A stretch of DNA of 63,740 bases, counting the filler, from Psammoneis japonica (lineage: Eukaryota): the NCBI GenBank assembly GCA_008632985.1. It is 4 parts of 4 records of this genome, joined end to end, with 100 filler letters (N's around TTAATTAATTAA, not from the genome) between each part and the next. Parts side by side here need not be neighbours in the genome. Positions count along the whole stretch, not along the records: positions 1 to 18,380 come from QPGO01000469.1; 3 more parts are not named here. One strand, 5' to 3'. This document shows, piece after piece, positions 218-36,913 of the stretch (position 1 is the stretch's first letter; every line of letters starts with the position of its first letter). The position numbers and the translations under genes are program-made. A model generated the notes under the pieces. The model had not been told where the DNA came from and made no database searches. It worked only from the letters and a program-made list of their open reading frames with translations.

Positions 218-1781
218 ATGAACAACGAAGCAAGAGATGCCATCCGTCTGCCATTGAAAAGTGGGGAGATTTCACGAATTTTTTAGAAGAGAAGTTTGAT
301 GCTGCCAGACCCCTTCCACTGCCGATGACTGCGCCACTGTTTAAAACCGTTGTTGATTGGATGACAATGACGAACAAAATCACGGAGCAATCCTTCGTCA
401 ATCCATTTGTGTTTGTGCACTGTTTTGTCAAGCTGGTCTCATGTGTCTGCCCTTCCAAGTGGATTCTGAAGAACGGGGCCGCTTCCCAACAATTGGACGA
501 CCCGATGAAGCCTGCTGCATGAAACCAACAGGAAATGACCCTGTTTGAGCTCAGAAAACAGCAGTTTTTGAAGCAAAGGCATTGCACAACATGTTGCTTC
601 CGAATGACTTTGACATGTTGAAGCAGTGTCATGAGGAGGCGGTCAAGAAGCAAGCGACAGAAAGGAGAAAGGAGCAGTCCAAGAGCTGGCATCAAATCTG
701 CCACCTGCTTTCCCAGGAATTGGCATGCATGATCAACAATGGTGTTCAACATGGAGCTCTTTTTTGTGCTTCGAAAGTGCACTTCATCCACCTTGATGGA
801 CCAGGCAGAGAAGTTCACAGGGTGGAAATTGCTGATGCGCACATTGCTGGTCAGAAAGACTTTCTTCGTGCTTGGGTGTGTGTGATTTGTCTCGCCGACA
901 AAAGTCCAGCACTGGCCAATGGAAATCATGGCCTTGAAATGTCTCCCTGCACTGGCATCAGATGGCTTAAGGGACCCCAATTTGTGAAGCTGAAGCATCG
1001 GAATCAGTGATTGAATGTCAAGAGCAAACTGGACATCATCCCAATGACAATGGCTCTTCTGTTGGTGATGGAAACAGTGACCACGAACTGTCTGGAGGAA
1101 GCCGAAGTGACAAGAGCAGCAGATCTAGCCCTGCATCCAAGAAACCAAGACACAAATCTCCTGAGCACCGCATGAAGAACGAAGGCAGTCAGTTGACTTT
1201 GATGTCATACACCGCCTCAGTTGGTTCAGTCGAGGTCTGCTGAGGATGAGGAAAGGAGCACAATGTCACTCCCACTCACCCCACCAGACTGCTCCTTCTT
1301 TGATTCGTTTTCTTTCGAAGACCAATTTGTGCATCCAGTCGATTTTTGAACTTTGAGGATCGGCCGGTTGTTGGGGGTCGGAAGGAACGGAGACGTCTTT
1401 GAGAGCGACTGTGGTGAAGAGAAGGTTGCGGTAAAGCAGTTTGATCTGTCAAAGAATTTTGAAAGTTACGAGAATGAGGTCAAGGCGTACGTGCGGCTGA
1501 GAAAGGCATGGGGTGAGCTTGTCCCTACTCCAAAATTCATTGCGCAGTCACCATCTGGCATGGTCAGGTTCCTTGGTCTACAGAAGGGGAGGTGTCCCGA
1601 AGAGGAAGAGTTTGATGGGCACTTTGGCACCGTGATTGACAAGCCACGGAGTGACTATAACTTCCAACCTCTTGATTATTCTCATGGTCGCAACTGCATT
1701 GTTGTAGATGAAGACAATGGAACAAAGAAGTTGCTCGTTATCGATCTAGAATTTTGGAAAGACACTGTGAAGATTGAGTAG
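218..1781 (+). pseudogene. Disrupted Crinkler-like gene: putative restriction-endonuclease-like domain followed by a protein-kinase-like domain
   Basis: 1353..1781 has kinase motifs (LLGVGRNGDVF Gly-loop, VAVK, NCIVV, VIDLE). 582..1010 has ELACMINNGVQHGAL, resembling the CRN REase motif YM..N...YG.L after Y->C/H changes. The frame is broken by stops/frameshifts. Confidence 0.5.
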
Positions 1782-2194
1782 ACTGATTTGGGAGAGTGAA
1801 GCTGATCATCGGAGGTGTGGGCTGTGTGCAAAGCACATGGTACAGTAGCCATACCTTTAGTGCTCTAACTAGCCCAAACATGGTAGCTTAGCTAATCGAT
1901 TAAAACAGAAATCTGGGCGTGTCGTGAAGGAGCAGCCCAACCGCTCTCTCCTTGACTCCAGTTTAACGTTGCGGGTGAGCCTGCCATCTGCTATCACCGC
2001 TCACCGCCCGTCGTGATCATGCGAGAGGGTTCTCTGCAGTTTGCTGAATACTATACTTCACCCTATTGTTTACCACGTGTGATATAATCATGTTCGTATT
2101 GACGAGCTGCTTGGTGGTTTGAACACGTCTAATGCCTTGCATGTGCAACAAGGGACTCTTCCAATAGCTGAAAGAAACCGGGAAGAGTGCTGCG

Positions 2195-3303
2195 CTAAGA
2201 CTTTGCTACAGCGGTACTTGCCACAATCTGCTCAGCCGTTTTGACGTATTTGAGGAATATTTCCTTTGTCTGCTCATAAAGCTCTTCTCGGTATCGTCTG
2301 CTATCGATTCTGACCACGGTTCTTTTGTCGTTGGAACTCCATTCGAAACACCGGTCGAAATCAATATGCCAAAGTTTTCCCGTGCTGTCAACCAATACTT
2401 GAAAGTCCCGCACAAGGCAACTTATATCCTGGATAAGTTCCAGGGTTTTGTTTATCTCGTGCCTAAAGTTACGAAGGAAGGATTCGCTGTCGCTCGACGC
2501 GGCCACAATTTCATCCAAATGCCCCTTTGCGTGTCTGTATTTGTTGGAGGTACAACCGAGGAGCAGCGACGGTTGAGGAGCCATTTTTACTCTATACACG
2601 GCAGCCATTCCTTTGGCATAGTAGCCTTTCTTGATCATTTTCTGTCGGGACTCTCTCATTAAAACTCTGTTCATCTCAGATGCATCATTCTGGCTTAGAT
2701 GTATAGACTGAACTGGACCAAACAGAGTGGATATCGAGTACTCCTTTTCAACCATTCTCGCAAGATCCCAAGCTTTTTCTCCGCTCGCAACAAAAAAGTT
2801 TAGTTGTTCTTGTGTGACCAAATAACCAAAGCGGGGACTTCGCCCTTTTCGCGGAAAAAACATTTCTCCACCCCACAGTTTGCCGGAACAGTTAGATTCA
2901 AGTTCTCCAATGCAAATTTCTTTGGAGAAGAATGATCTGAGTCAGACACGAGTTTGACTCCTTTTCATTTCTTGTGCCGTTTCTTTGTCCTCTTTGTTCG
3001 TATTTGTCAATATCGCCTTTGTACATGTCTACTTGCTCTTGACCTTCTCGATTGTCCTGCTTGTTGCTTCTATGTTTTTCGCGTGTGTCCGACAAAGATT
3101 GCCTTTTTGATGTGGGCGGAAGATCCTTCGTGGCAGAATCTTTCCTGATGGACTTGGATAGCGCTGCATATAGAGACGGTGAGTGTAATGACAGAGGGAG
3201 TTGAATTGATGTTGCTTAGAGACACGAAGGAAACTCGGAGAATCAGTTGAACGGTACTGTATCCAACGATGAACACGACGTAGACTAGTCGACGACTCAG
3301 CAT
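2195..3303 (-). pseudogene. Copy A of membrane-anchored hypothetical protein; frameshifted (real or assembly indels)
   Basis: ORFs 3070..3303, 2898..3095 and 2195..2863 together reproduce the copy C protein. Tyr codons are retained. Confidence 0.75.
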
Positions 3304-3404
3304 TTTGGAGAGGTTTCAATTACAGTCTAGTATACCTCAGCAACAGCGATGATAAATCCATCATCCAGTCTTTTTGGCAATCCTTTCATGGTCGTTGCCG
3401 CGGA

Positions 3405-4350
3405 AAAGCAAAAGGGAAAAGCAGAAAAAAGGTGGGGATTGATTCGACCGTTGGGCGCGCACAAAATTTTGATGACGACGAGCGTTGAAAGAGCGAGCAC
3501 GCAAGAGCAAAAAATGATGGCACGCACGAATTTTGTGCGCCATGAGCACACCAAATGCAATGGGGCAGCAAGTTCCACTTCTTCCTTGCCATTCAACCAC
3601 GTCCATGCCACTGGCAATGGGGAAGCCATCCAAGCCTTCTTCATCTGGTGGGGTCATGGGGAAGCCATCCCAGCCTTCATCTGGTGGGGTCACCCAAACA
3701 CTCCTCTGTGTTTGCCTGGACAAACTCGCGCCCATCTCCTTGTTTTGACCCGTGTCCCTTCTTGTCAGTGATGTCATGCACAACACATCATGGACAAATC
3801 ATCAACACATCTTCTTCTCTCATTTTGCTTGCTGCAGGAGACACTGTGTTTTCCACAGGCAAATGCAGAGAGTGCAGCCAGGTGGGCATGCTTGCCTCTT
3901 GAAAGAAAGAGCTGCAAAATGCTGGCGCTCTTGTTGTTTGCAGTGGAGACAACTCTGGCCTGCATCATTCTTGGTGTGATTCACATTGAGATTGTGTTCT
4001 CTGGCTGGCAATGAGCCATTGTTGCTGAAGAAGTCATTGTGAAAATTGTTGCTGGTCAAAGAGACACACCACCGCAGATGTCTTGAAACACAAGACTTTG
4101 GACCCAGCTTCTGTTTGCTCTCATTCTGAATTTCTTTGACATGTGCCAGCTTCATTGGCTTGCTGCTGTCAAGATGGAAGAAACCTCTTTCTGTCAAGTT
4201 GAGCCTCTCGATGCCTCTCATTTCTTTGACCACTCTCCTTTCAACACCAGCGCAGTTGGGGCAATGTCCCCCTTTTGTTGGGAGCTCCTTCCAACACACC
4301 CCACAAGATGATGGAGAGCACATTTCTTTGCAAGTCATGTCAGCATTGGG
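3405..4350. mobile_element. TpA-depleted unclassified insertion upstream of copy A (second copy ~6090-7040)
   Basis: Homology of copies A/B to copy C ends at gtcgttgccgcgga (~3404). The following ~950 bp is present twice, absent upstream of copy C, and almost TA-free. Confidence 0.55.
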
Positions 4351-4748
4351 TCATCATGCATCAGAGCTGTGTGCTGTGTGCAAAACACATGGTGCAGCAG
4401 CTGCACCTTAAAGGTCCTGACCAGCCCAACCATGGTGGCTTTTAGGCAGTCATTTTTAACAGAAATCGTGGCATGTCATGCTGGAGCAACCGCTCTCTTC
4501 TTGACTCCAGGTTGACATCGAGGGAAAAGCTGCCATGTGCTGTCCCCGCTCACCACCCATTGCATCATGTGAGAGGGGTCTCAGCAGTTTGCCGCACACA
4601 CTGCTTTGCCCCTTTTGATTTAAACCAGTCGACTCAAATGTGGCATGCACAAAGACATGAAAGCACAACATGAAGGCCAACGGGCTGTGAGGAAGCCCAA
4701 AAGCCAAGGGCTTCAATCTGTGTGTGACAGATGAAAAAGGACATCTGT

Positions 4749-5987
4749 TCATTTTGATGAGCCACTTTGTGGGTTGAGCATGTGTGTTGGCTGCCTCAAT
4801 GGCATTTCTGCAGGAGAAGATTTGCGTGTGAAATGAGAGACTCTTCCATTGGCTGAAAGAACCGGGAAGAATGCGGCGCTGAGCTTCACCACAGTGTTGT
4901 TTGCCACAATCTGTCCAGCCATTTTGACATGATTGAGAAATGTTTCCGTTGCCTGCTTGCAATGCTCTTCTCGGTGTTGCCGCTTGTCGATTCTGACAAC
5001 GTTTCTTTTGTCATTGGAACTCCATTCGAAACACCGGTCGAAATCAACATGCCAAAGTTTTCCCATGCTGTCAACCAATGCTTGAAAGTCCCGCACAACA
5101 CAACTTACATCCTGGACAAGTTCCAGGGTTTTGTTTGTCTTGTGCCTAAAGTTACGAAGAAAGGATTCACTGTCGCTCGACGCGGCCACAATTTCATGCA
5201 AATGCCCCTTTGCGTGTTTGCATTTGTTGGAGGTACAATCGAGGAGCAGTGACGGTTGAGGAGCCATTTTTGCTCTGTGCACGGCAGCCATTCCTTTGGC
5301 GCAGCAGCCTTTCTTGATCATTTTCTGTTGGGACTCTCTCATCAAAACTCTGTTCATCTCAGATGCATCACTCTCGCTTGGATTTGTAGACTGAACTGGA
5401 CCAAATGGAGTGGACATCGAGTGCTCCTTTTCAACCATTCTCGCAAGATCCCAAGCTTTTTCTCCACTCGCAACAAAAAAGTTTAGTTGTTCTTGTGTGA
5501 CCAAATGACCAAAGCGGGGACTTCCGCCCTTTTCGTGGAAAAAACACTTCTCCACCCCACAGCTTGCCGGAACTGTCAGATTCAAGTTCTCCAATGCAAA
5601 TTTCTTTGGAGAAGAATTGTCCGAGTCGGACATGAGTTTGACGTCCTTTTCATTTCTTGTGCCTTCATTTTGTCTTTTTTGTTCATGTTTTTCAATGTCG
5701 CCTCTGTGCATGTCTATTTGCTCTTGACCTCCTTGATTGTCCTGCGTGTTGCTTCCATGTTTTTTGCGTGTGTCTGACAAAGATTGCCTTTTTGATGCGG
5801 GCGGAAGATCTTTCGTGGCAGGATCTTCCCTGATGGACTTGGACAGTGTTGCATGTAGAGACGGTGAGTGCAATGACAGAGGAGTTGAGTTGATGTTGCT
5901 CAGAGACACAAAGGAAACTTGGAGAATCAGTTGAATGGTGCTGCATCCAACGATGAACACGACATGGACCAGTCGACGACTCAGCAT
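4749..5987 (-). pseudogene. Copy B of the same gene: open frame but hypermutated (no Tyr, original stop lost)
   Basis: 412-aa ORF colinear with copy C. All Tyr are replaced by His/Cys. The end GCT TAG appears as CTC AGC (1-bp deletion plus TA->CA). Confidence 0.8.
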
Positions 5988-7566
5988 TTTGGAGAGGTTT
6001 CAATTACAGTCTAGCACACCTCAGCACAACAACAACGACAAATCCATCATCCAGTCTTTTTGGCAATCCTTTCATGGCCGTTGCCACGGAAAAGCAAAAG
6101 GGAAAAAAGGTGGGGATTTGACCATTGGGCACGCACAAAATTTAAAATTTTGATGAGCTTGGAGACGAGCGTTGAATGAGCACGCAAGCAAGCAAAAAAT
6201 GATGACACGCACGAATTGTGCGCTGTGAGCACACCAAATGCAATGGGGCAGCAAGTTCCACTTCCTTGCCATTCAACCATGTCCATGCCACTGGCAATGG
6301 GGAAGCCATCCAAGCCTTCTTCATCTGGCGGGGTCGTGGGGAAGCCATCCAAGCCTTCATCTGGTGAGGTCATGCAAACACTCCTCTGTGCTTGCCTGAA
6401 CAAACTCGCGTTCATCTCCTTGTTTTGAGCCATGCCCCTTCTTGTCAGTGATGTTGTGCACAACACATCATGGACAAATCTTCAACACATCTTCTTCTCC
6501 CATTTTGCTTGCTGCAGGAGACAGGCCACTGTGTTTTCCACAGGCAAATGCAGAGTGCAGCCAGGTGTGGGCATGCTTGCCTCTTGAAAAGAAGAGCTTC
6601 AAAATGCTGGTGCTCTTGTTGTTTGCAGTGGAGACAACTCTGGCCTGCATCATTCTTGGTGTGACTCACATTGAGAACATGTTCTCTTGCTCTCAATGAG
6701 CCATTGTTGCTGAAGAAGCTGTTGTGAAAATTGTTGCTGGTCAAAGACACACCACCGTGGATGTCTTAAAACACGAGACTTTGGACCCATCTTCTGTTTG
6801 CTCTCATTCTGAATTTCTTTGACACATGCCAGCTTCATTGGCTTGCTGCTGTCAAGATGGAAGAAACCTCTCTCTGTCAAGTTGAGCCTCTCAATTTCTC
6901 TCATTTTTTTGACCACTCTCCTTTCAACAGCAGCACAGTTGGGGCAATGTCTCCCTTTTGTTGGGAGCTCCTTCCAACACACACACACCACACAAGATGA
7001 TGGAGAGCACATTTTTTTGCAAGTTGTGTCAGCATTGGGTCATCATGCATCAGAGCTGTGAGCTGTGTGCAAAACACATGGCACAGCAGCCACACCTTAA
7101 ATGCCTTGACTGGCGCAACCATGGTGACTTTTGGGCAGTTGTTTTTAACAGAAATCGTGGCATGTCGTGCTGGAGCAACCACTCTCTTTTTAACTCCAGG
7201 TTGATGTTGAGGGTGAGCCTGCCACATGCTGTCCCTGCTCTCCACCCATTGCATCATGCAAGAGGGTTCTCTGCAGTTTGCCACACACACTGCTTCACCC
7301 CTTTTGTTTTGAACCAGTCGACTCAAAAGTGGAACACAGAAAGACATGAAAGCACATTATGAAGGTTAACCAGCTGTGAGGAAGCCCAAAAGCCAAGGGC
7401 TTCAAACTGTGTGTGACAAAGGACAAAGGACATCTGTTCATTTTGATGAGCTGCTTTGTGGTTGAGCGCGTGTAATGGCTGCCTCAATGGCATTTCTATA
7501 GGAGAAGATTTGCATGTGCAATGAGAGACTCTTCCATTGGCTGAAAGAACCAGGAAGAATACGGCA

Positions 7567-8676
7567 CTAAGCTTTCACCACAGTGTTGTTTGCCACAATC
7601 TGTTCAGCCATTTTGACATAATTCAGAAATGTTTCCTTTGCCTGCTCGTAACGCTCTTCTCGGTAACGCCGCTTGTCGATTCGGACAACGTTTCTTTCGT
7701 CGTTGGAACTCCATTCGAAACACCGGTCAAAATCAATATGCCAAAGTTTTCCCGTGCTGTCAACCAATACTTGAAAGTCCCGCACAAGGCAACTTATATC
7801 CTGGATAAGTTCCAGGGTTTTGTTTATCTCATGCCTAAAGTTACGAAGAAAGGATTCGCTGTTGCTTGATGCAGCGACAATTTCATGCAAATGCCCCTTT
7901 GCGTGTTCGTATTTGTTGGGGGTACAACCGAGGAGCAGCGACGGTTGAGGAGCCATTTTTACTCTAAACACGGCAGCCATTCCTTTGGCATAGTAGCCGT
8001 CCTTGATCATTTCCTGTCGGGACTCTCTCATTAGAACTTTGTTCATCTCGGATGCATCATTCTGGCTTAGATGTATAGACTGAACTGGACCAAACAAAGT
8101 GGATAACGAGTACTCCTTTTCAACCATTCTCGCAAGATCCCAAGCTTTTTCTCCGCTCGCGACAAAAAAGTTGAGTTGTTCTTGTGTGACCAAGTAGCCA
8201 AAGCGGGGATTTTCTCCCTTTTCGCGGAAAAAACATTTCTCCACCCCACAGCTTGCCGGAACAGTTAGATTCAAGTTCTTCAAAGAAAAGCTGGTTGGAG
8301 AAGAATGATCTGAGTCAGACACGAGTTTGAAGTCCTTTTCTTTTTGTGTGCCGTTTCTTTGTCCTCTTTGTTCGTATTTGTCAATATCGCCTTTGTACAT
8401 GTCTACTTGCTCTTGATCTTCTCGATTGTCTCGCTTGTTGCTTCTATGGTTTTCGCCGGTGACTGACAAAGATTGTTTCTTTGATGAGGGTGCAAGGTCC
8501 TTCGTGGCAGGGTCCTCTCTGATGGACTTGGGTAGCGTCAAAGATATAGACGGTGAGTGCAATGACAGAGGAGTTGAATTGATGTTGCTTAGAGACACGA
8601 AGGGAACTCGGAGAAGCAGTTGAACGGTGCCGTATCCAACGATGACAATGACGTAGACTAGCCGACGACTCAGCAT
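7567..8676 (-). CDS. Copy C, intact 369-aa hypothetical type-II membrane protein with a possible atypical kinase-like C-terminal domain
   Basis: Starts MLSRRLVYVIVIVGY (N-terminal hydrophobic anchor, start shared with copies A/B). Low-complexity stem, then CGVEKCFF and DFQVLVDSTGKLWHIDFDRC motifs. Confidence 0.75.
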   Translation of the reverse strand: MLSRRLVYVIVIVGYGTVQLLLRVPFVSLSNINSTPLSLHSPSISLTLPKSIREDPATKDLAPSSKKQSLSVTGENHRSNKRDNREDQEQVDMYKGDIDKYEQRGQRNGTQKEKDFKLVSDSDHSSPTSFSLKNLNLTVPASCGVEKCFFREKGENPRFGYLVTQEQLNFFVASGEKAWDLARMVEKEYSLSTLFGPVQSIHLSQNDASEMNKVLMRESRQEMIKDGYYAKGMAAVFRVKMAPQPSLLLGCTPNKYEHAKGHLHEIVAASSNSESFLRNFRHEINKTLELIQDISCLVRDFQVLVDSTGKLWHIDFDRCFEWSSNDERNVVRIDKRRYREERYEQAKETFLNYVKMAEQIVANNTVVKA

Positions 8677-8757
8677 TTTATTTCCTGTCACAGTTGAGCA
8701 ACAACGATGATAAATCCATCCTCCAGTCTCTTGGTAATCTTCAAGGTCGTTGTAGCG

Positions 8758-8784
8758 GATGATGATGATGATGATGATGATGAT
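8758..8784 (+). repeat. (GAT)n microsatellite, ~9 units
   Basis: gatgatgatgatgatgatgatgatgat, seen directly. Confidence 0.95.
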
Positions 8785-8959
8785 ACAGTGTTCCACCGCG
8801 AAGATTGTCAAATAAATCGTCAAGACATACATGCAGTCATTGTGACTCGCCGTTTCAATGACTTCAGAAACGTCACTGAGGTGACCTGCTGTAGGGCCCT
8901 AGAAGAAGAGTCGTTGAGAGTCTCCTCGCGCCTCACAATCTCAATTAGTTGCTGTAACA

Positions 8960-11200
8960 CTGGCACCTAGAATTGCCTCAAGCTTGCCAAGGCATGCAAT
9001 GCAGTCGTCAACAATGAGGGCACGGACGAATGATTCCCAGAGCATGGGGCCACATTTGTGGCTGCCATGACAATGTGCAAGATGGAAAAATGTGAGTGGA
9101 AACCTTGTGGTGTCATGCCGCCATGCTTTTCTCAAAGCAACTGCCTTGCTGGCATGACAGGCAAAAAAGCCTGCAATTGCATTGCCACTGTTCCAGCACT
9201 GGTCATCACAGACACTGCACAATGGTGGCCTGCCTGCACTCACCGCACTCTGTCAGCAGCCACCATCTTTGTCGTTTGCTTGTCGCTCAGTTGTCTTGGG
9301 CACTCATCACATGCACCCAAGCAAAGTGATGGCACAGGCCATGCTCTGGTTGCTGCCATGTGACCAACAAGCTGTGCCAATTTGGAGAGTGAGTCACATG
9401 CTCTGTTGAAATGATCGATGCCAACACCTTCTCTGAGCAAAATGAACAATTTGGCAACGTGATTCACCCAGCACCCAGGTGCCAAAAGTGAAAAGCATTC
9501 TGTGCAGAATCTGACATTGACCCAGCACATGAAGTTGAGGATCCATTGCAAGTGACCATGAGTGTCAAGATGAAGCTGAAGCTGAGTGCAATGCTGGCGC
9601 ACCTTGCAAGGAATGGCAACCTGCGAGCCAAGATCAGGGCCTTTCTCAAGCTTTTGTTTGCTTCTTTCACTGGCAGTGCAGTTGAAGCAAAGTGCTCTTT
9701 TTTCATTTGGAAAGTTGTTCCCAGCACAGCATGAGCAACATGACTGGAGAGAGCACCTTTGCAAGTCTTCATTCTCAACATCTTCTTGGCTCCATGAGTT
9801 TGACACCCCACCCTGACAAATGAGGAATGAATCGCTGCCTGCTTCAGCTTGTTTGCCATCGGTGCTTTGATGGCTTGTGTGTTTTGGAGGCAACACCCTG
9901 ACCTTGCTTTTGCTGAAGCCTGGGGCATCATGCCAGTCTCAACATCAATCTGTGTCAGACAAAAAAATGTTGGAATGTTGAGCCAGGAATGCTCCAAAAT
10001 GGTGTCTGCATCTTTTGCCAGAAACTCCAAGCTGAACAAAGAAGATGTGCTGGATTTGTTTGTTTTTTGAGGAGCCTGGGGAAGCTGAAGCTGCATTTTC
10101 TCTTCTTCAATGTTTGCCCTCTGCAACTGTTTTTATCATCTCCATCCATGTTTGCTCTCAATGTCAGGAAGTGGTGCTGCTGTCACAGATGGGACAAGAT
10201 CTTCATCATCGCAGCTGCCATCTTCATGCCCTTGTTTGCACTGCTTGTTCTGTGGGCTGCAAGTTGCTGTGGTGCTTTCTGGGTGCAGCACTCAAGCTTT
10301 TGACTCTCCACACTGCAACTCTTCAGTGCCAAGATCTGCAGTGACATTTTTGACACTTTGCTGTTCAATGTTTTTGGTGCAGCTGCCACAGCAGACCACC
10401 CAACTCCATTGATTTGCACTTTGACAGCTTGGCTGATGAAGCAGCTTCTGGAGCTGCTGCAGATTTGTTGGTTGTGTGCAGCAACACTTTGTCATTTTCC
10501 ATCAGTGCCTTGTGTGCCTGGTGGCAGAGCAGCTCAAGTTTCAGCATGACATTTTCATTTGAGTGCACACAAGCCAAGAGGGGCACAGCACACAGAAACA
10601 GCACTTTTCTCATCAATGTCAGCTTGCCTTCAATGTGTCACAGTCCAGTTGGTTGTTTTGTTTCAGTTGCCCCACCACACATTTAAAAAAAGCCATGGCT
10701 GTCTCACAAAAACTGGCTGCCACCCTCTCTCTGTGACACCTTGTGCATTGCAACAGTCACATGATGATGATGGTGCAAGCTTGTTGCATTGACCAATCAC
10801 ACTCAAGTGCCTGGTGCATCTTTCTTTGCCTGCATCAAGTCTTGGAAGCTGCTTTCTTCTTGTGACTGTTGGCTTTGAGAGAAGTGTCAAAGCCATGCCC
10901 AGCTGAGTTTGAGCATGCACAGGTGGTGCTTGCAACAACGCCAAGTTGTTGTCCATTTTGGTGTCAGCTTCATGTCATGCATGTTGCCACAACAGTTGGC
11001 ACTGAGGCAGAAATGCATTGGTCACTGTTGCACCTGAAAAACTGCAAATGGATCAAAAGCTGGGATTTGAGTGTCAAGCACAAGCTGACTTGCAGGCTGG
11101 CATTGCCTGCAAATGTCATGTGAGCTTTACAATGAAGTTTGCTGGCCGCCAAGCAACTGCTCTCTGTCTTTGTGTGAAAAAGGGGGGTGGGGTGACACTT
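8960..11200. mobile_element. Heavily decayed unclassified repeat/transposon sequence
   Basis: Nearly TA- and CG-free; overlapping Tyr-free ORFs in all frames; no recognisable motif. Confidence 0.4.
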
Positions 11201-11209
11201 GATGACTTG

Positions 11210-11525
11210 GCGCACTGTGCTTGGAGAACAAGCACAAATGAAAGCAGAGTGGACAACAAAAAGTGGACATTGTGAGACAAATTTTGCTCTGCAATTTTTG
11301 GTTTCTCTGAATGAATTCTCTCAATGGCCCAAAGCATTTGTGCTGCTTCCACAGACTGAAAGGCTTTTCAGAGAATGTGATTGTGACAGCAGATTGTCTG
11401 GGTGTGACTGACACTGCCACCTTGTGTGTCAACATCATCAAGGGATCTTGTTTGCAATTCTCAACATCCAACAATTGTGGACATGTGCACAACTTTCTTG
11501 CTCAACAACACATGTTGCACTTGAA
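11210..11525 (-). repeat. 3' LTR-like direct repeat of the gypsy element (ends approximate)
   Basis: aaaaagtggacattgtgaga...tctcaatggcccaaag...actttcttgct.acaacaca matches 15990-16390. Confidence 0.7.
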
Positions 11526-11555
11526 TTCCTTGCTGCACATTAGAGTCATTCATTG

Positions 11556-11769
11556 AATGGTGTCATTTGACAGATGTTGACAGTGTCAATGATCTCTCAC
11601 CATGTTTGATCTGCACTTGCTGTGCTGTCAGTGTGTGCCATTGTCATTTTGTGGTGGGGCCAAATGGCATCATTTGACAGATGTTGACAGTGTCAATGAT
11701 CTCTCACCATGTTTGATCTGCACTTGCTGTGCTGTCAGTGTGTGCCATTGTCATTTTGTGGTGGGGCCC
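11556..11769. repeat. 107-bp tandem duplication of the integrase 3' end
   Basis: Near-identical units starting aatgg at 11556 and 11663. Confidence 0.92.
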
Positions 11770-14700
11770 AGCATGGGGCTGCTCTGATTTTGAGAGTCTT
11801 TCTCAAGCAATGTCTTTTCTTCTGCTCTGTGCTGCACATGTGAGAGAAGCACATTGAGCATTTTCTCAAGCATTGTTTTTATTTTTAGATTTTCTTTTTT
11901 CTTTTCTAAACAAATTTCCTGTCAGCAAGAACATGTTGGATGTCAAATGTGACATGCCTGTTGAAGACCAACTGTCCTGGTGCAGCTTGCACAGCAGTGT
12001 GACATGTTGAGTGCACTCCAAAGGCCGCTGCTGACAGGATTCCTGTGAAAGGATTCTCTTTGTCTGGAGGTTTATTTTGTAGATCAAATGTGTGCAGCAT
12101 GTTGCCCAGTGCTCAATGCTTGTGCTGAACAATGGTGTCAGCTTGTGGATTTTGGGCACCAGCTGTGGGCCTGCACTCAATGCCACAGTCCTCTTTAACC
12201 ACAGTTCTGAGTTGGTGTTCAGTGAACTCACTTCCACAATCACAAGCAATTGAAGATGGTCAAGGGCACTCACTCAACACCACGTTCTTTCCAGCAGTCC
12301 AGCAACAGTCATGGATTCCTCATTTGGAATTTCTGCCAGTGCTTCAAACAATCCTGTTGCTGGATCAACCATTGTGAAACATTTTGAGACCAGTGGTTTC
12401 TTTCTGCCCTTTCAATGCATTTTGCATGGTTCAATGACATTCACACATCTTCCCCATTGCACTGCTTCCACACACTCAGGAGGCCAATGTTTGTGTTTCT
12501 TCTGTTTCTTTTTTTAAATTTCTGGCATTTTTCACATTTTGACACGCATTTTTCTCATGTCTTTGCGCAAGGCAGACCACCACAAGTGTTGTGAGATTGT
12601 CTCTTTAGCTCCACTCATGGTGCCAAGGTGCACAAGGCATGCATGGTGCACCAACCCATCACTCTGCCTTTTTTGACATCTTTGGCATGATCTTTGTGTG
12701 ACATGTTGCACCCAACAATTTGGAGAGAATGTCCTTGCCCCACTTTTGTTCAGCATCAAGAACTTTGCACGTAAAAATTGAAGGACATTGTTGCAGGATT
12801 TGGGTGCAACATTCTCAGCCAATTCTTCAGCGGCTGCTGAGGTTTTCTGTTTTCTTCACAGTGAGTCAGCTGATTGCATCTGCAATGACACCAGCCTTGC
12901 CCTTTTGAGGTAAATTGTTTTTGAGCTGCATTCTTCTGTTGTCAGATGCCAACACATGACTCTGTTCACAGCAAAATTCCAGTGAGTGAGATTTTTAGGA
13001 CCCACAAATGTTTTCATCTGTTGGCCAAACAGTGTGTTGCAGAACTCTTTTGGATTTTCTGCAAAGGACAGAAGTTCTTCTTCCATTGTGGTGTGGCATG
13101 TCTGCACTCCATTGAGCTTGCAGCTGCAGAAGGCAGTGGGTCTGTCATCTTGTGTTGTGACCACTCCCAATTGAGAATCACTGATGGTGGTGTGCATCTC
13201 AAATGGTTTGTTGCATTTGGGTGTGACAACAACACATTTTTGACATGAAATGCTTCATGTTTTTGAAAGCCTTTTGTTCCATGCTTGTCTGTTGCCACTT
13301 GACCTTGCTTGAGGTGATTTGGCCAGACAAGTGAGTGCATGAGATTGTCAAGGCCAAATGCTCCAATTCCTTGTGAGTGGTGGGAGCTGCAATCACTTGA
13401 ATTGCCTCCACTTTCTCAGGGATTGGTCTGAAGCCATTTCAGGTGATGTGAAGGCCTGGATGGTCCACTTCAGGCTTGGATTAAATAGACTTTTTTTGGC
13501 ATTAACTTTTAAACCAGCTTGTTTGAGCCGTGTGAATGTCATTTTAAACTTGTTCAGGTTGTGTTTGAAGGCACCTTTTATCAGGCACATCATGTCATCA
13601 AAATGAGTTCTGAAAACTCCAAACCTGCCATGAGCTGGCTTGTGTGTTCTTGAAAACATGTGAGGCTCCACAAACATCCACCATGGTGAGTCTGCAGCAC
13701 TCACACTTGCCCCATGGCACACCACAATTGCACACAAGCAACATGCATGTGGTGTTAATTTGACATGGTGGTGTTCCATGTTCAAATCAAGTGAGGTCAC
13801 ATGCATGGACCCTTCTGGTTTTTGCAGCACATCTTCAATGTTGGGCAAAGGAAATGGAGTGTGTCTTGACCTTTTGTTGAGCTTGCAGAAGCCAGGCAGG
13901 AACCAAACTTGACCATTTTTCTTGGGTTGAACAAAAGTTGGAGCTGCCCATTCAGAATGGTTCATCTTTCTCAAGACTTTCAATTTGCATTGTTGGTCCA
14001 CTTCCTTTCAAGCAATTGCCTCCAAGGCTTGTGGCACAGGAAATGGTTTCACGTGACACAGAGTTGCAACCAACTTCAATGCAAAATCTGCTGGTCTTCC
14101 TGTTCATTTTGCCTGAGGCCTGACACACCATCAAAGAGGGGTTGAAACCTTTTTGAGCAAGAAGTTCAGTTGTCTCTGTTCTTCTGGGGCTGGATGAGTT
14201 GCTGCCATGGTGGTCACATTGTTGAGGTCAGCAGCATGACAGTCAGAGTCAAGGATCTTGTTGATCCTGTTGTCAAGGCCATTCACAGCATGAGATTCCT
14301 CAATGCAATTGGCAATCAGCTTGAAAACATCAGGCATCAAAGAATGTGCCAACATCTTTCATTGGTGCAGTTGCATCTTCCCATTTGATTTTGTCATTTG
14401 CAAAGTCTGACATGACTCCAAGACTGCTCATCAAGTTGTGTCCCAAGACCATGTCACATTGACATGAAGAAGAAGGGGTGCTGCACCACATTCTTAATCA
14501 ACTTGTGTTTGTCAAATTCAGGTGATGAAAACTGGATTTTGCATTGGCTGTCAGTCACAAAGAGTTCACCCTTGGTTTCTCAAGTCTTGGTTGCAGATTC
14601 CTCAGTTCTCAATTTCCACATGAATTTGCACAAAATTGTGGTTTTCTGTCAAGAAGAATGTGCAGAGGCTTGTTTTTTGTTTTCCACAAAGAGGTGCTCA

Positions 14701-15989
14701 TGTGAGGAATGATTGCTGGACTGGTGTGAGTTGTTTGGCCTTTTCCTGGGCTTGTTGGTGTCCAGTGATGTGCAAGACTCCTCAACAGGTGCCAGTCATT
14801 CCTCAGAATTGCTGCGAGTCATTTTCTCAAACTGAAACTTTCCTCTCTGAGGGCATCAGTGTCAGAGTCACAACTCTTGCTCTTGCACTCTTGTCCTTTG
14901 TCAAGAAACTTGCCTCAAGTGTCATCTTGACCACCTGGGCAATCAGAGCATCAAAATCTTCTTTTTGAAAGGCATTGTCAGCATTGCAACAAGGCCAGCA
15001 TGTGCGATTGGCATTTTGGACATTGCTGTTTTGGGTTCCATTTAAAATTTTTTGGCATTCTTTTGCCAGTTTTTAATGACCCAGCATTGCTTGGTCCATG
15101 TCATAGCATTTTTTTGCAACAGTTGCACCGCTTGTTGACTTGGGCCATTTGGCACCAGATTGGCAACCATTTTTGGGACCACAGCACCACGGGATCTGTC
15201 CTGGGCTTTAGAGCCAGGCTCAGTGGTGGGCTCAGATTCGACATGGATCTGGTCAAATGATGTGTCCTTGGCAACCTCCAAATGCTCCACAAAATCAACC
15301 AACCTGTCAAAGGTGTGGTCTGAGACTTCCAAACATTGTGGGTTGACTGATGCAAGCATCAAGAAGGTGCAAGGATGATGTTGCAGAGCTCATGTTAAGC
15401 AAGATTTTGCTTTGACTCATGGGGAGGACTGCACTTGAAGTTTTTGTTGACCTCCTGCATTCAAGCAGCAATTTCTTGAATTTTTCATGGTGTCTGGTTT
15501 CTGGAGATCAAGATCATGCTGTGGACGCCTTTTCTGATTTTGAGGAGTGTTCTTGGGGAAGACATGGTTTGAAAGATGCTGAAGACATTTTTCAAAGGCT
15601 CCTTTGTCTTTTCAGTCTTCAACGCTTGTTGCCTTTCTCAAAAACTTGCAGAGTGTCTCCATGCAACAACAACATGTGCACAAGCTGGAACTTGTCAGCT
15701 TGCTTCTGGATGATCTGAAAGTTTTTAAAATTTTAATGTGCTTGGGAACTCCCTGCTTGTTGTGGTGATTGACATCTGTCATGTGGGTGCAGCTTTTCTT
15801 GCATCTTAAGGATGAAAATGCTGCTCCACATCTTGAGGTGCCGGCTTGGTTCAAGCAACTTTGGCGTGGAAATCAAATCCAGTGGCACAGGCACAATCTT
15901 CTCCTGCTTGATCAAGGACTTTGGGTGGATTGGCCACATGAGACAAAAGCTTCATTTTCATGTTTTTGCTTTTTATGGCATTTGTGCAC

Positions 15990-16390
15990 AATGCACAGTG
16001 CTTGAAGAACAAGTGCAAACAGAAGTGGAGCGGATCGCACAAAAAGTGGAAATTGTGAGATTAAAATTTGCTCTGTGATTTTAGATTTCTCTGAACAAGT
16101 TCTCAATGGCCCAAAGTGTTTGCACTGCTTCTGCGCACTGAAAGTCTTTTAGAAAATGTTGTCATGACAACAGATTGTCCAGATGCAATTGACGTTGATG
16201 CCTTGTGTGTCAACATTGTCAAGGGATTGCATCATTTGCAATTTTTGACATCTCACAAACTCTGTGTGATCAATCTGACCTTCATGTGCATGTCCACAAT
16301 TGTGGTGCAATTGACACATGTGACATTGCACAATTGTCAGCATGTGCAAAACTTTCTTGCTTGACAACACATTGTGTTGCATTGGCAGGC
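15990..16390 (-). repeat. 5' LTR-like direct repeat of the gypsy element (ends approximate)
   Basis: Homologous to 11210-11525, with an extra internal segment. Confidence 0.7.
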
Positions 16391-16399
16391 TGTTTGTTT

Positions 16400-18380
16400 T
16401 GCATGCTTTGGTGCAAAAATGGCACCCAAATGACAAAACCAAATCACCAGCCTTTCATTGCTCCGATGCGACCATTGGGTTTTTGTCACATTTGGAGAAC
16501 CAAGAGGCAAGCAGGCCACTTTGGTTTGCTTCCATGCAAATGTGGCAGACCCACATGTGTGCACCAAACTGAGTCACTTTCAGTGCTGAAATGAAGACAA
16601 AAAGACAGATCCTCATGAGTGGAAGGGTTGTTGGCACTTGTTCCCAGCTTTGAGAAGCCTGCCATTTGGTCGTGTCACACAAAAACTCAGCACAGCAATG
16701 ACTTCCTGGGAAAAAATCTGATGAAATTTTCTGGCATTGTTGGCTGCACAAAGCAACAAGGTGTCTGAACAGCTGAGTGGAGCATGCTCCTGTGGCATGT
16801 GGGAACTCTGGTGAGTTCACTTGTTTGGCATGAAGGATGTCTTTCAAGTGCAAATGGTCGCAACATCCTCTTGCCATGTGCTTGAGAAGAAGTGCTTTTT
16901 GTGGCTATGGAGCAGATTGCTGTGCCACATTTGAGTGGCTCAAAGTCTCACAGATGCCCACTCATTGCACTCAAAAGGTTGGCCATGATCATGTGCAAGA
17001 AGCAAGTGAACATGCCACAATCATTGGCCTGAGGAGCTTGGCTTTTGCTGCCAGCTTTAGAAAAGATTGCACTGTGCTCCTCCCAAAAAGAAACTTTGGC
17101 CAAGTTTTTCTCAAGATCTTTGCAGCCACACCCCTGTGTCAACTTGGGAGTGGTGAGAGGCAAAGCAGACAAAAAACCCACTCTTTCAACTGAGTCATGT
17201 GAACCACTGACAAGAAGCAGAAATGCCTGTTGCAAGTCAAATCATCTGCAGCAAATGTTCGAACAAAATGAGCTTTGTTTCTTCAAACCAACTGACCCTG
17301 CCCCATTCCCATCACAAAGGCTTGCAACACATTGCTTGCTCACAAGAACAATGATGTCACACAATCCACACACCAGTGCTGGTGTGTTGTTAAACCAGTT
17401 GGTGTTGGAGTGACAAAGTGAGGACATTGAGATGTCAATGATGAGCTGTGCATGGCATGCCAAAAGCCCACCTTGGCTCCACAGTGTGGTCTGCCACAAA
17501 TGTTGGAAGAAAGGTGATGATCAGCAAATCCAGCTTTGAAACATGCATGAGTTTGCACCACCCCTGCACAGTGCTCTGGGTGTTGGTCATTGAGCGCTTT
17601 GCAGCACACTTTGCATTGACTCTGTGTGCATCATGCAGAGTCATTTTCCTTCATGTGCTCACATTGTCCCTGCATCAGATTGTGGTGCTGCTGCTGCTGC
17701 TTGCCCTCTTCATTTGCATGCCTTTTCATTGGCAACAGGAGCACTTTGCATATTTTGTGTTCCTTTTTTTTGACAGATGCGGGAGTTGAGTGCAATGAAA
17801 GTGCAAACAATTGGTGCATCAAGGTCAGTGTGTGTTGTCAAAACATCAACTGTTGAAGCCTTTTCATTGCCTGTTTTAAAAAGGATTTGAGGAGTGATTT
17901 GGCAGAGCTCCATGCTCTTCCCATCAAGAAGATTGGTTGACTTCACAGGAAAAACGACCAACCACCTGCTGGTTTTTCATTCCTTGAATGCCTCAGTTTC
18001 TTGCACAGCTTGCATTAACAAAATTGGCTGCTGGCAGCTTGGAAGTCACCATTTGTTGCCTTGATGGCATTGGGCAGTCTCTCTCATGCTGTTGCTGGCA
18101 CAAAAGAACTCATTTTGCAATGGATTCAATCTCTGACCTGCTCTGGGAGGTTGCTGCAGTTCTTTGTCTGGGTGGCAAGAAATCTGATGTCAACATTGAG
18201 GCATGAAGACCCACCATGGTCCTGGCAAACCAGGCCATTTGGTCCTCTGGAGTTTCCAAAATCAATTCAGGGCATTCAGCACCTTGGATTCCTTCCAATG
18301 CGGGAGTGGTCTTGGAACCAAATGGCAGCTTGGGCACTTGGGAACAGTGGGTGTGTGGCAGAGCTTGTGCAAGATTTTGC
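16400..18380 (-). mobile_element. Decayed transposon-like sequence with a possible Ulp1/C48 protease remnant
   Basis: 16948..17235 contains PQANDCGMFTC, resembling the Ulp1 Q.N..DCG.F catalytic motif. The region is TA-depleted. Confidence 0.35.
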
Positions 18381-18480
18381 NNNNNNNNNNNNNNNNNNNN
18401 NNNNNNNNNNNNNNNNNNNNNNNNTTAATTAATTAANNNNNNNNNNNNNNNNNNNNNNNNNNNNNNNNNNNNNNNNNNNN
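18381..18480. other. Assembly gap with artificial six-frame stop linker TTAATTAATTAA (18425-18436)
   Basis: Identical linker inside N-runs at three places in the window. Confidence 0.97.
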
Positions 18481-20460
18481 CCTTTGTTGCGGCACGTTGG
18501 ATCTTGATTGTTCTCCCTCTTCTGGGTTTGTTGGCAGTGGTGATGCTTTCTACAATCTGCTCAATGCTGGTCCCCATCTTGCATGTGCCTTCAGTGAGCA
18601 TGGTCCACCCTCGTCGTACCCGGTGCCATCTCTTCCGTTTCGGCGTGCATCCGGGCTTGTGGTTGGGGTCGGTCGCGTAGAAGTAAATGTGGATCAGGAC
18701 CATCGCTGTCGACAGTAAAATTAGAGCATGAGCTAGCAGCTTTTGTTCAATCACTCGTTTGTTTTCAAATGAGAGCGACGTCATTATGATGGTCATGTGG
18801 TTGCAGGCGAATGCCTGCCAGGCGAAGAGCGCAGTTGCCTTGATGATCGCAAAACACTTCGACGCCATGGTTTCCAACCCATGTCCATCACAACCGCTGC
18901 AGCCGTGCTCAAGGAGTCATTGAGACTCCTCGCCCGAGTCCTGCCCGTCCACTGCGGCTTGGCATGCTTTGTTGAGCTTGAGCCGTGGGTGTCCGTCAGG
19001 TCCCTTCTGTTTCTTGTGGGGTGGTGCTGTAGACTCGTTTTTCTGTGGCTTGTTCTTGCCTTCTCTGCCTTCACATTGGGAGGGCTTGTGGACACGCCAC
19101 TTGCCAGAACACTTGCCGCCGGCACTCTTCTCACACCAACAGCATGCGGCACCTTTCCAAGTTCTCGGGTTGGTTGGCTGGTCTCGTTTGGGACGCCTGT
19201 GTTTCTTCAACCACGTGGGCTTCCCGTCTTTCTGAGCACCTTGAGGCGCGTCGTGGTCTTTTCCCTTGTTTCCCGTCTTCTTGTGGGATTTCTTGCTGAG
19301 GGCCTCCACTTGAGCTTGGAGAGCCAAGATCTTTTCTTCAGACGCACTGGGGGTGTTCCACAGCGATTTCTGAAGCAGGTTCTTGCACTTGTTGCCCGCG
19401 AGGTTCATAAGTTGCGACGCCGACATGTCCTCGCCCTCTTCACACTGTTCTTGCTTACGCTCGATGTGCTTGACAAAAACTTTGTCGGAAGCAGCCAGGC
19501 ACCCCTTGAAGAGGTTCGTAAGCAGGTCCTCAGTGGTTTCGCCTCGTGACTTAAGGGCGGCAAGCAATAATGCCACGTGCTGGTTGAACTTCAAGATGTC
19601 ATGACCGATCGTTGGGAGACGGAGGTCGAGTTGACTCAATTTCGTTCGGATCGCACTCGTCGTGGCGTTCGTGTCGAGGTGGGATTCTCTGATGATGATC
19701 TTGAGAAGGAGATTTCCGGACATACGATCTCCGATCTTGTATTCTGATTCCCAGATCCTCACTTTATCCTTTCCGGCTTTCGACATGGAGTTCATTAGGC
19801 AGCGATGCGCTAGACAGGCATCTTGCACTGCGCGACTCTCGTCACCGATGTAGGATTCTTCAAAGCCCCGGATCCTCTCTAGGTCCATCTGACCATAGTC
19901 GGTCAACAGATTAGACCTCTCGGATTCCAGGATGTCTTCGTGGTCTTCTGGGATCATGAATGCTCCGTTCTCATCATTCCACCCAAACTCTCTGGCTCTG
20001 TCTTCCAAGTTCTTGAGGAACTGGCACAGGTCTCCTGGTTCACAATCGAACAATTCCTCGTCCAGCGGCTTGGTGGCTTGCTCAAAAAGCTTACGACCCG
20101 CACTCGAACGACAATCGATGACCGTGGTGATCGCTTGTGCCGGAGCCAATGCAAGTGGGACATCTTCGGGAACATCTCCCAGCTCCGGTCCAGAAACGGA
20201 CGAAGCGTCTGAAGAGGCGTCAGACATGTCACTCAGCGCAGAGGAAGCGTGTTTAAATGCTCAAAAGCAGATCAGCAGCGGTAGCTAGTGATGACTAGCA
20301 AGCATTGGGGCGATCAAATAGGTGTTACAATAACAGCTGTAGTAAAATTGTGAGGATGTGAGAGGCTCCTCGTCTCTCATTGAAGACCGATGTTTATGAG
20401 TCATTTTTGGGACAGTGAGTCATAATGTAATGACGTATGAAATATGATATCTTCACAACA
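18481..20460 (-). mobile_element. 5' part of a diatom copia-like (CoDi-type) LTR retrotransposon, cut by the gap
   Basis: gag ORF followed by the start of a second ORF. TGTTG...AAACA (minus strand, 20460-20391) may be a short LTR (uncertain). Confidence 0.65.
18917..20227 (-). CDS. Gag-like protein of a copia retrotransposon (436 aa, partly hypermutated)
   Basis: LLLKIIIRESHLDTNATTSAIRTKLSQLD, LLTNLFKG.LAASDKVFVK.IERK and C-terminal WC..C..W..H....C knuckle, as I recall from diatom copia gag proteins. Confidence 0.75.
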   Translation of the reverse strand: MSDASSDASSVSGPELGDVPEDVPLALAPAQAITTVIDCRSSAGRKLFEQATKPLDEELFDCEPGDLCQFLKNLEDRAREFGWNDENGAFMIPEDHEDILESERSNLLTDYGQMDLERIRGFEESYIGDESRAVQDACLAHRCLMNSMSKAGKDKVRIWESEYKIGDRMSGNLLLKIIIRESHLDTNATTSAIRTKLSQLDLRLPTIGHDILKFNQHVALLLAALKSRGETTEDLLTNLFKGCLAASDKVFVKHIERKQEQCEEGEDMSASQLMNLAGNKCKNLLQKSLWNTPSASEEKILALQAQVEALSKKSHKKTGNKGKDHDAPQGAQKDGKPTWLKKHRRPKRDQPTNPRTWKGAACCWCEKSAGGKCSGKWRVHKPSQCEGREGKNKPQKNESTAPPHKKQKGPDGHPRLKLNKACQAAVDGQDSGEESQ

Positions 20461-23485: not shown

Positions 23486-23519
23486 CGCTTGGGTGCAATC
23501 TTCTCATTTCTAATCACCA

Positions 23520-30200: not shown

Positions 30201-30309
30201 CCATGACATAGACGCACTTGAACACACATAACGCTGTTTTGTTTTTCCAAGACTTGACACTTACACCAACACTTCCTTGACTAACACACCTCTCATACGT
30301 GTGTCTTGC

Positions 30310-33300: not shown

Positions 33301-34346
33301 GCACCCGCAACTTGCGAGATAATCTGAGTGACTTGCGAGCTCAAGTCGCTGCCAATAATTCGGGTATCCGCCATTTACAAGAGCTGGTCGAGGAGTATGG
33401 TCTTGGCGTCGTTCAAGCGTACATGGGCTTTATTCAACACAACGCCGAAGGATGCGTTCGTACCATGTTGAAAGAGTTTGCAGAAAAGCATGGCTCCCGT
33501 GCTCACGCAATCGATTATATGGACGATGGAACTCCGATTGAATTGACAATTACAATCGACAAAGACACCGGCAGTGCCTTGTTTGATTTTACTGGTACAG
33601 GTCCACAAGTCTACGGCAATCACAATGCTCCACCCGCCGTGACGTACTCGGCTGTCATTTACTCGCTACGGTCTCTTGTTGCCCAAGATATTCCTCTCAA
33701 TCAGGGTTGCTTGGCGCCCATTGAGTTTGTGATTCCCAAGTATTGTCTCTTGAATCCGTCGTCGGACGCCGGTGTCGTGGGAGGAAACGTATTGACAAGT
33801 CAACGCGTGGTGGACGTTGTACTCAAGGCATTCAAGGCTTGCGCTGCGAGTCAGGGCTGTATGAATAATTTGACCTTTGGCGACAAGGAGTTTGGATACT
33901 ACGAGACGATTGCCGGGGGCGCCGGAGCTGGAAGCACTTGGAATGGTCGCAGCGGAGTGCATACGCATTGTACCAATACTCGTATTACCGATCCGGAAAT
34001 TCTGGAACGTCGATATCCCGTCTTGTTGCGACAGTTTGCCTTGCGTCACGGTAGTGGAGGGAAGGGACAACACAAGGGCGGCGACGGCGTCATTCGTGAA
34101 ATCCAGCCATTACGTCCTCTCATTATGAGCATTCTCAGTGAACGTCGCGCTCTTCATCCCTATGGCCTTGACGGTGGTGAGGACGGTGCTTGTGGAATCA
34201 ACTTGCTCGTAAAGGAAAATGGTATTGTTGTCAATATGGGCGGACGGTGCAGCGGTACAATTACTGTTGGCGAACGACTTAGAATTGTAACTCCCGGTGG
34301 TGGTGGATGGGGCAAATACGAAGCCTCAGGGGAAATGAACAGTTAG
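30310..34346 (+). CDS. OXP1: 5-oxoprolinase (ATP-hydrolysing; hydantoinase A+B fusion); intron 32203-32306; apparent indel errors near 31290 and 32730-32760
   Basis: [95 protein letters not shown] intron restores MR/YEGTD. Alternative start at 30439. Confidence 0.95.
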
Positions 34347-36813: not shown

Positions 36814-36913
36814 NNNNNNNNNNNNNNNNNNNNNNNNNNNNNNNNNNNNNNNNNNNNTTAATTAATTAANNNNNNNNNNNNNNNNNNNNNNNNNNNNNNN
36901 NNNNNNNNNNNNN
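36814..36913. other. Assembly gap with TTAATTAATTAA linker (36858-36869)
   Basis: N-run with linker. Confidence 0.97.

Follow-up and report, generated by a model that had tools for sequence, protein, structure and literature searches.

Near-saturating TpA erasure in domains of presumably silent DNA from the diatom Psammoneis japonica, consistent with locally targeted hypermutation

The stretch of DNA analysed here, called the window throughout, is 63,740 nucleotides (nt) long, comes from the diatom Psammoneis japonica (GenBank assembly GCA_008632985.1), and carries at its left end a tandemly triplicated gene whose middle copy, copy B, has lost every tyrosine codon. What the window displays directly is a set of substitutions with a definite polarity, dinucleotide context, strand symmetry, domain structure and recurrence after duplication. 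We consider it likely that this diatom genome has a locally targeted hypermutation that converts TpA to TpG or CpA over domains of silent DNA, with copy B lying inside one such domain. The contigs of the window are joined by three linkers of 100 nt (44 N, TTAATTAATTAA, 44 N) at 18381-18480, 36814-36913 and 55057-55156, which were excluded from every count; neighbourhood across a linker is not real, and the key domain edges fall within contigs.

The array consists of three head-to-tail units with a period of ~2685 nt and one minus-strand gene per unit, and a tblastn search of the window returned no copy beyond these three:

2195 to ~3460, minus strand: copy A, which needs three frame changes to be read and has normal TA and CG content; likely a frameshifted pseudogene.
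4749-5987, minus strand: copy B, hypermutated, with 412 codons open and no tyrosine among the 412 residues.
7567-8832, minus strand: copy C, intact and with normal TA content; its true start is likely the methionine at 8676.

A sequence-only reading of this locus had proposed that all 12 tyrosines of copy C are replaced in copy B, and codon-by-codon comparison bears this out: the TAC and TAT codons of C at residues 60, 67, 146, 153, 213, 241, 280, 281, 308, 390, 395 and 405 have become seven CAY and five TGC codons in B (Y, pyrimidine). At a thirteenth site, residue 289, A reads TAT, B reads CAC and C reads TTT, and copy A carries TAY at 13 of these 13 sites. The eleven residue pairs listed in that reading were all recovered in the protein alignment, and its two quoted 20-mers were located at 2581 in A and at 5264 in B. 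It had also held that TA was lost through both TAY>CAY and TAY>TGY, with both strands hit, and the DNA agrees: a three-way alignment has 39 dinucleotide sites at which A and C both read TA, and of these B reads TG at 16, CA at 16 and still TA at 7.

Transitions on the B branch are strongly dependent on context, as the same reading supposed. They occurred at 26/66 A/T bases within TpA compared to 15/500 other A/T bases (Fisher p 6.6e-17), and at 18/80 CpG bases compared to 13/378 elsewhere (p 1.3e-7). Private gene-body substitutions numbered 32 in A, 81 in B and 67 in C; those in B divide into 32 TA>TG/CA, 18 CG>TG/CA, 15 other transitions, 10 transversions and 6 of the reverse types, and private TA>TG/CA changes numbered zero in both A and C. 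The B spectrum is an evolutionary comparison with ordinary substitutions mixed in, not a record of de novo events. Because copy A is frameshifted and has no private TA>TG/CA change, neutral decay or relaxed selection alone does not make the pattern.

Counted by codon phase, TA dinucleotides number 0/4/4 in B and 18/14/13 in C; with TA lost in all phases in B and kept in all phases in C, selection on the protein explains neither the loss nor the retention. The change extends to the stop codon:

4879-4881, minus strand: stop codon of copy B before conversion, now CAG, where A and C both read TAG.

There is a 1-nt deletion just upstream of this former stop, and the frame extends 44 codons further; the long open frame of B is a by-product of TAA/TAG loss. 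Adaptive recoding of B was ruled out, as the change reaches noncoding DNA and spares no codon phase. A second candidate, biased gene conversion, was ruled out since the change is dinucleotide-specific and CG was lost simultaneously.

Polarity had been argued from copy A, which keeps tyrosine at nearly all of the sites. The direction so obtained, TA loss, stands, but the argument is insufficient: along most of the gene body, A and C resemble each other more than either resembles B, with 93-99% identity in 100-column blocks, so that a state shared by the two does not root the tree. The root came from 27 homologues, in which residue 213 is tyrosine in 24 and residue 241 in 20, and residue 281 is phenylalanine in 17, tyrosine in 9 and cysteine in none. 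Histidine, which with cysteine is the state expected in outgroups had B been original, occurs in just 1/27 and 3/27 at the two best sites, and cysteine occurs at no site of the conserved domain. The nearest homologue (P0001) has tyrosine at 213, 280, 281, 289 and 405, and the other tyrosine sites lie in poorly conserved regions that are uninformative for rooting. Since tyrosine, or at least an aromatic residue, is retained by the outgroup homologues where sites are conserved, copy B is the derived state.

The opposite polarity would have B as the original and its tyrosines created in the A-C ancestor by C>T changes at CpA and TpG, in the manner of fungal repeat-induced point mutation (RIP). 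CAY>TAY and TGY>TAY are canonical RIP changes, and with A and C nearest to each other the three copies alone are unrooted. Against this, the outgroup counts at 213 and 241 favour tyrosine and cysteine is never seen at 281; the TA observed/expected ratio (o/e) of 0.58 is common to housekeeping genes; copy C has no RIP-type stop codons; and the TpA/ApT ratio of the TA-poor DNA described below is 0.085 versus 0.61 in normal DNA, the reverse of the RIP signature. We give this reversed direction hardly any credence; the outgroups refute it unless every one of those homologues had undergone the same mutation as well.

The sequence-only reading placed the effect in copy B. The effect is there, but its confinement to B is not: it is domain-wide over 3354-7470 and reaches about half of the window. 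Besides this extent, that reading missed the decay of CpG to TpG/CpA, the conversion of the B stop codon and the escape of copy A as a frameshifted pseudogene. TA-poor DNA makes up about 57% of the classified window, and the two classes have nearly equal base composition:

TA-poor class, 35.9 kb: o/e TA 0.07, CG 0.37, CA 1.74, TG 1.68.
Normal class, 26.8 kb: o/e TA 0.58, CG 0.95, CA 1.20, TG 1.19.

Long TA-poor blocks over the window have TA o/e values of 0.0-0.14, and two stretches, 3354-4408 and 8969-10133, contain no TA at all. Around the array the domain edges are sharp, at 3353/3354, 7470 and 8968/8969, and the sequence is partitioned as follows (all unstranded):

1431-3353: TA-normal island with copy A and a small open reading frame (ORF) at 1353-1781.
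3354-7470: TA-poor domain that takes in all of unit B together with the spacer upstream of A and the flank 3' of C; TA o/e 0.07-0.09.
7471-8968: TA-normal island with copy C plus ~100-140 nt on each side.

A pair of transposon copies repeats the comparison outside the array. The element resembles a miniature inverted-repeat transposable element (MITE), is 385 nt long, ends in terminal inverted repeats of 24-30 nt and contains a further, inner inverted repeat; its two copies are on different contigs:

48413-48797, plus strand: MITE-like element, first copy (copy x), unmutated, 28 TA, in normal DNA.
55485-55870, plus strand: MITE-like element, second copy, 4 TA, in a TA-poor domain.

Over 383 aligned columns the copies differ at 43 positions; from the first copy to the second, TA>TG/CA accounts for 25 of these differences and CG>TG/CA for 4, and neither type has a reverse case. 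A wider 650-nt alignment around the pair gave 11 TA>CA and 12 TA>TG changes. The second copy has lost 24 of 28 TA and 6 of 27 CG, so that TA loss is well ahead. The MITE pair is an independent replicate of the copy B pattern.

Domains of this kind could be imagined without any targeting, if a TpA (and CpG) mutation bias acted genome-wide and genes were protected from it by transcription-coupled repair or by selection. The TA-normal islands are indeed blocks of transcription-unit size around genes, and the long TA-poor stretches are all without intact recognisable genes. Several observations are hard to place in such a scheme: copy A retains its TAs, with no private TA>TG/CA change, despite requiring three frame changes; in C, TA at positions of synonymous type is as well kept as the tyrosine codons are, in all three codon phases, so that selection on the protein is not what keeps it; normal domains of 7 kb with several genes have a TA o/e of 0.57-0.60 throughout, including between long ORFs; and MITE copy x keeps its 28 TA. 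Untargeted bias is in our judgement quite improbable.

Paralogous noncoding DNA gives information on timing. We scored as a conflict any CA<->TG difference between paralogues, the trace left when one ancestral YpR step (R, purine) is converted independently on opposite strands. The A/B spacers contain 12 conflict dinucleotides and the B/C 3' flanks 10, whereas column shuffles gave means of 0.48 and 0.44 with 0/2000 reaching the observed values, and the gene-body controls gave 2 and 3. At 3' flank sites with TA in A, B and C have the same product at 11 and different products at 2. Shared products together with conflicts imply that some conversions predate the B/C split and that others came after it. 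The process thus recurred, after duplication too, which does not imply present-day activity.

Another possibility is that the pattern is an artefact of assembly or base-calling, for instance if modified bases were systematically miscalled or if DNA of two organisms had been chimerically joined. Two facts would suit an artefact: the window is assembled as a pseudomolecule from separate contigs, and a conserved gene elsewhere in it is split over several frames. On the other side, the domain edges lie inside contigs, the paralogous spacers mostly share a product with only 12 conflicts, which points to inheritance rather than independent miscalling, and strand-mixed miscalls would not cleanly remove both TA and CG. 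Run X1 reproduces copy B as well: its short contigs, 200-413 nt long and with a word depth of 54-71, differ from it by 0-2 letters across six pieces, although X1 may be the source sample of the window assembly. Of the three DNA runs from one sample, the other two, X2 and X3, yielded no match to the stretch. An artefact is, on this evidence, so improbable as to be negligible. At 5765 and 5847, a copy-B-specific X1 contig reads C (CpG) and the window reads T (TpG), which suggests CpG/TpG polymorphism within the sample.

The TA dinucleotides that survive in TA-poor DNA show a preference that extends beyond the TpA step. The contexts of the 167 survivors differ from those of 1094 TA in normal DNA (chi-square 235 with 9 degrees of freedom, p 1.6e-45), with TTAA enriched 7.9-fold and CTAA 2.7-fold, ATAT/ATAC reduced to 0.08-fold and GTAC to 0.16-fold. 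Survival mainly in TTAA points to a preference for T-A-Y, with T-A-A largely spared. In our own arithmetic, the ten context classes are fitted closely by a multiplicative model in which the chance that either of the two adenines is hit depends on the base 3' to it, ranked T>C>G>A. Among 58 polarised events, an edited A with a 3' pyrimidine opposite a spared A with a 3' purine was found 20 times and the opposite arrangement 7 times (p 0.019).

A process with this signature has been described in the chlorarachniophyte Bigelowiella natans by Mettrop et al. (2026), where two integrated viral regions mutate ~1000-fold above the rest of the genome in mutation-accumulation lines (bioRxiv 10.64898/2026.01.13.699255). 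In this giant-virus and virophage DNA nearly every change is A>G/T>C, and all fall on TpA; the genome has TpA-poor clusters rich in CpA and TpG in which transposon domains are enriched; and an ADAT2-like DNA adenine deaminase was put forward as the agent (bioRxiv 10.64898/2026.01.13.699255). A full-text search of the literature outside subscription journals returned this preprint as the only relevant paper and no report of TpA hypermutation in a diatom.

For the diatom we propose a mechanism in which an A:T>G:C transition would occur at the palindromic TpA step on either strand, with T-A-Y preferred. Whole silent domains would be targeted, including transposon relics, the MITE copy, array spacers and copy B, and conversion would run near to completion and end ~100-150 nt from working genes. 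CpG is lost more slowly in the same domains, as expected if they are cytosine-methylated. Copy B would be a silenced duplicate in the course of being written off, its tyrosines becoming histidine or cysteine and its TAG stop becoming CAG. The agent would be an enzyme that deaminates adenine to inosine in DNA; inosine pairs with C, and A would become G. Recruitment would be by silent, probably cytosine-methylated chromatin, and the role may be genome defence, through the permanent inactivation of mobile or redundant DNA. Homology-dependent, RIP-style targeting was tried as a rule for recruitment and ruled out, as A, C and MITE copy x escaped.

That the agent is a TadA/ADAT2-like adenine deaminase making inosine in DNA is a tentative identification, plausible enough to name and too uncertain to lean on. 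In tRNA, A34, the natural substrate of TadA/ADAT enzymes, always follows U33, and this makes a TadA/ADAT origin attractive. The same targeting and the same footprint could also come from thymine chemistry, if the T of TpA were modified (hydroxylated to 5-hydroxymethyluracil or turned into a J-like base, for instance) and then mispaired with G, or were excised and misrepaired, giving T>C. The strand symmetry of the products (TG 16, CA 16) suits this route, an R-T-A rule fits the motif data as well as T-A-Y does, and 5-hydroxymethyluracil lies preferentially at TpA in dinoflagellate DNA. We met no sign of such a base in diatoms, and the only study of the signature proposes adenine deamination; the window itself contains nothing that separates the two chemistries. 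A thymine route is unlikely in our view, though less so than either untargeted bias or artefact.

A number of points weigh against targeted adenine editing or qualify it. All results come from one window of at least four joined contigs. Among the private substitutions of B, 49/81 are not of the TA type, so that ordinary ageing has contributed too. "A after T" and "T before A" are indistinguishable under strand symmetry, which bears on the adenine as opposed to the thymine route. The full T>C>G>A ranking was not significant in the direction data (26 versus 16, p 0.16), and the 39 sites of copy B, with 10/20, 7/17, 4/15 and 5/14 converted for a 3' T, C, G and A, respectively, show a trend only. 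Copies A and C share 93-99% of positions across much of the gene body and are nevertheless unmutated, a poor fit to homology-based targeting. Finally, in Phaeodactylum tricornutum, the sole diatom with mutation-accumulation data, the accessible passages of the study describe a GC>AT bias with CG, CC and TG as mutable contexts, and the TpA effect is absent from those passages (PMC6604790).

A wider proposal, which we regard as possible and rather doubtful, is that chromatin-guided DNA adenine editing erases TpA to saturation in diatoms, is homologous to the Bigelowiella process, and descends from an old genome defence of stramenopiles, alveolates and rhizarians that employs a natural T-A-Y-specific DNA adenine deaminase. 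If true, it would be a mirror image of RIP that removes tyrosine codons (including those of the catalytic tyrosines of reverse transcriptases and recombinases), TAA/TAG stops and TA-rich promoter elements. GC content would be unchanged, so that GC-based scans would be blind to TpA erasure.

The triplicated gene belongs to a real family, because a phmmer search with it gave 412 homologues at E values up to 0.001. A Pfam scan of copies A-C gave no family above cut-off, and a sequence search of the PDB returned 0 matches. A structure predicted from 30 sequences has a predicted local distance difference test (pLDDT) score above 90 over residues ~180-380, and the best Foldseek matches to this model were atypical kinases of small size, the HopBF1 kinase 6pwd (E 3.1e-5, template modelling (TM) score on the target 0.52), PI3K and PINK1. 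Residues D352, D358, H365, D367 and D369 are conserved in the family. We describe the predicted protein as kinase-like and do not claim membership in the kinase fold. The best ESM Atlas score with copy C, 0.88, was to unnamed bacterial clusters and is a lead only. A look-up of the clusters of eight homologues gave neither names nor accessions. One alignment of related loci proved too diverse for scanning the pattern, and those in a smaller alignment are three metagenome contigs of 1.3-3 kb, too short to reveal domains.

Beyond the array and the MITE pair, five further TA-poor domains were delimited (unstranded, with the strand of each relic given):

8969-18380: TA-poor and CG-poor, with relics of long terminal repeat (LTR) retroelements, RT_RNaseH at 12859-13254 (minus strand) and RVT_1 at 13396-14007 (minus strand).
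23500-30100: RT_RNaseH_2 relic at 27666-28328 (plus strand) and PEP-utilizers_C fragment at 23632-24087 (minus strand).
36950-41000: NDC10_II-domain relic at 37786-38571 (minus strand).
48900-53000: no recognisable protein domain.
57000-61100: CG o/e still 0.7.

Of 96 open frames scanned, 90 held nothing recognisable, and most of the TA-poor DNA is without recognisable origin. In the normal blocks, by contrast, lie genes for an oxoprolinase and for a phosphoglycolate phosphatase. Neither Rfam models nor a tRNA scan gave a match in the window.

Several of these regions have features of their own. In the first domain, the plus strand of the 10000-16000 block has a CA o/e (2.0-2.3) above its TG o/e (1.6-1.9), with the retroelement relic on the minus strand; the relic at 25000-29000, on the plus strand, has no CA/TG skew. 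The fragment of a phosphoenolpyruvate (PEP)-utilising enzyme at 23632-24087 (minus strand; PF02896, E 2.2e-5) lies just within its TA-poor domain and may be a further hypermutated host-gene fragment. At 57357-60878 (plus strand), in TA-poor DNA, a frame with no Pfam match is open for 3.5 kb save for three stops, and could be either a hypermutated element of young age or merely a consequence of losing TAA and TAG. For the stretch 18751-19551 and the ORF at 18917-20227 (minus strand; 436 codons, GC 0.55, CG o/e 0.75), the TA counts by codon phase in the ORF are 3/4/9 versus 27/18/20 expected, and it is either partly converted or naturally TA-poor.

The small ORF at 1353-1781 (plus strand) encodes 142 residues in which a glycine-loop and a VAVK-like motif can be seen by eye, with no Pfam family above cut-off. 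The oxoprolinase/hydantoinase gene at 30277-34346 (plus strand) carries Hydant_A_N, Hydantoinase_A and Hydantoinase_B in four overlapping frame pieces; its first frame break falls within ~10 nt, leaving no room for an intron, and the gene is either decaying or affected by indel errors of assembly. The ESM Atlas clusters nearest to part of it are bacterial Hydantoinase_B, which is uninformative for taxonomy. For the phosphoglycolate phosphatase, every one of the best named relatives comes from a diatom (more than 12 genera, 66-77% identity), which supports a diatom source.

These data support the view that TpA has been erased almost to saturation from silent DNA of a diatom, a kind of change first described in 2026 and now seen in a second supergroup and on new kinds of target. 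If it is real at genome scale, it would be a second independent lineage with TpA-directed hypermutation, far more extreme than the first, and would point to a general eukaryotic means of disabling mobile and duplicated DNA beside the cytosine-based RIP and APOBEC. TA-poor DNA is nearly without TAA and TAG, so gene finders call long false ORFs in it, of which the 412 codons of copy B are an example; tyrosine-free "paralogues" of this kind are pseudogenes, and ages of duplicates and transposons estimated from divergence are distorted. For base-editing research, an enzyme from nature that edits A within double-stranded T-A-Y would be of interest. The array is in effect its own internal design, with one intact copy, one frameshifted pseudogene and one hypermutated copy.

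Among known systems, the closest is that of B. natans. Both show A>G/T>C changes at TpA, yielding TpG or CpA by strand, with a large regional contrast; and both leave TpA depletion and CpA/TpG gain as a long-term footprint. That footprint is enriched in transposon and foreign domains in B. natans; here it covers RT/RNase H and NDC10_II relics and a MITE, and a host-gene duplicate too. The hosts differ, a stramenopile here and a rhizarian there, and so does the extent, with a TA o/e of 0.07 over 57% here compared to a Rho of 0.45 in the hypermutable virus region there and only 5% of 1-kb windows at or below 0.43. Targets in the diatom include a host-gene duplicate as well as a MITE and the spacers of the array, where B. 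natans has viral insertions; the loss of TA is accompanied by that of CpG here, whereas no CpG loss was reported there; and a 3'-neighbour preference for T-A-Y over T-A-A is seen here. The B. natans evidence consists of de novo mutations in culture lines, whereas ours is comparative only.

Fungal RIP is similar in making context-specific transitions on both strands, in inactivating repeated or mobile DNA and in leaving compositional domains. Its chemistry runs the other way: RIP makes TpA from CpA and TpG and creates stops, whereas here TpA is destroyed, TAA/TAG are removed and open frames are lengthened. RIP also mutates all copies of a duplicate, whereas A, C and MITE copy x escaped. CpG decay through deamination of 5-methylcytosine in methylated transposons shares with our pattern a palindromic step and the same TG/CA products, and CG>TG/CA changes are enriched in the same domains; the TA loss is unexplained by it and, in the MITE copy, is faster.

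ADAR enzymes of animals have a 3' G preference, and the 3' preference found here (T>C>G>A) differs from it. ADAR acts on double-stranded RNA and would reach the genome only via retro-copies, marking one strand, whereas here both strands are hit equally and the affected DNA is a tandem duplicate with its spacer and a copy of a DNA transposon. ADAR hyperediting is nevertheless like the diatom pattern in being A>G with a preferred 5' U/T neighbour, as stated in the Discussion of the B. natans preprint (bioRxiv 10.64898/2026.01.13.699255).

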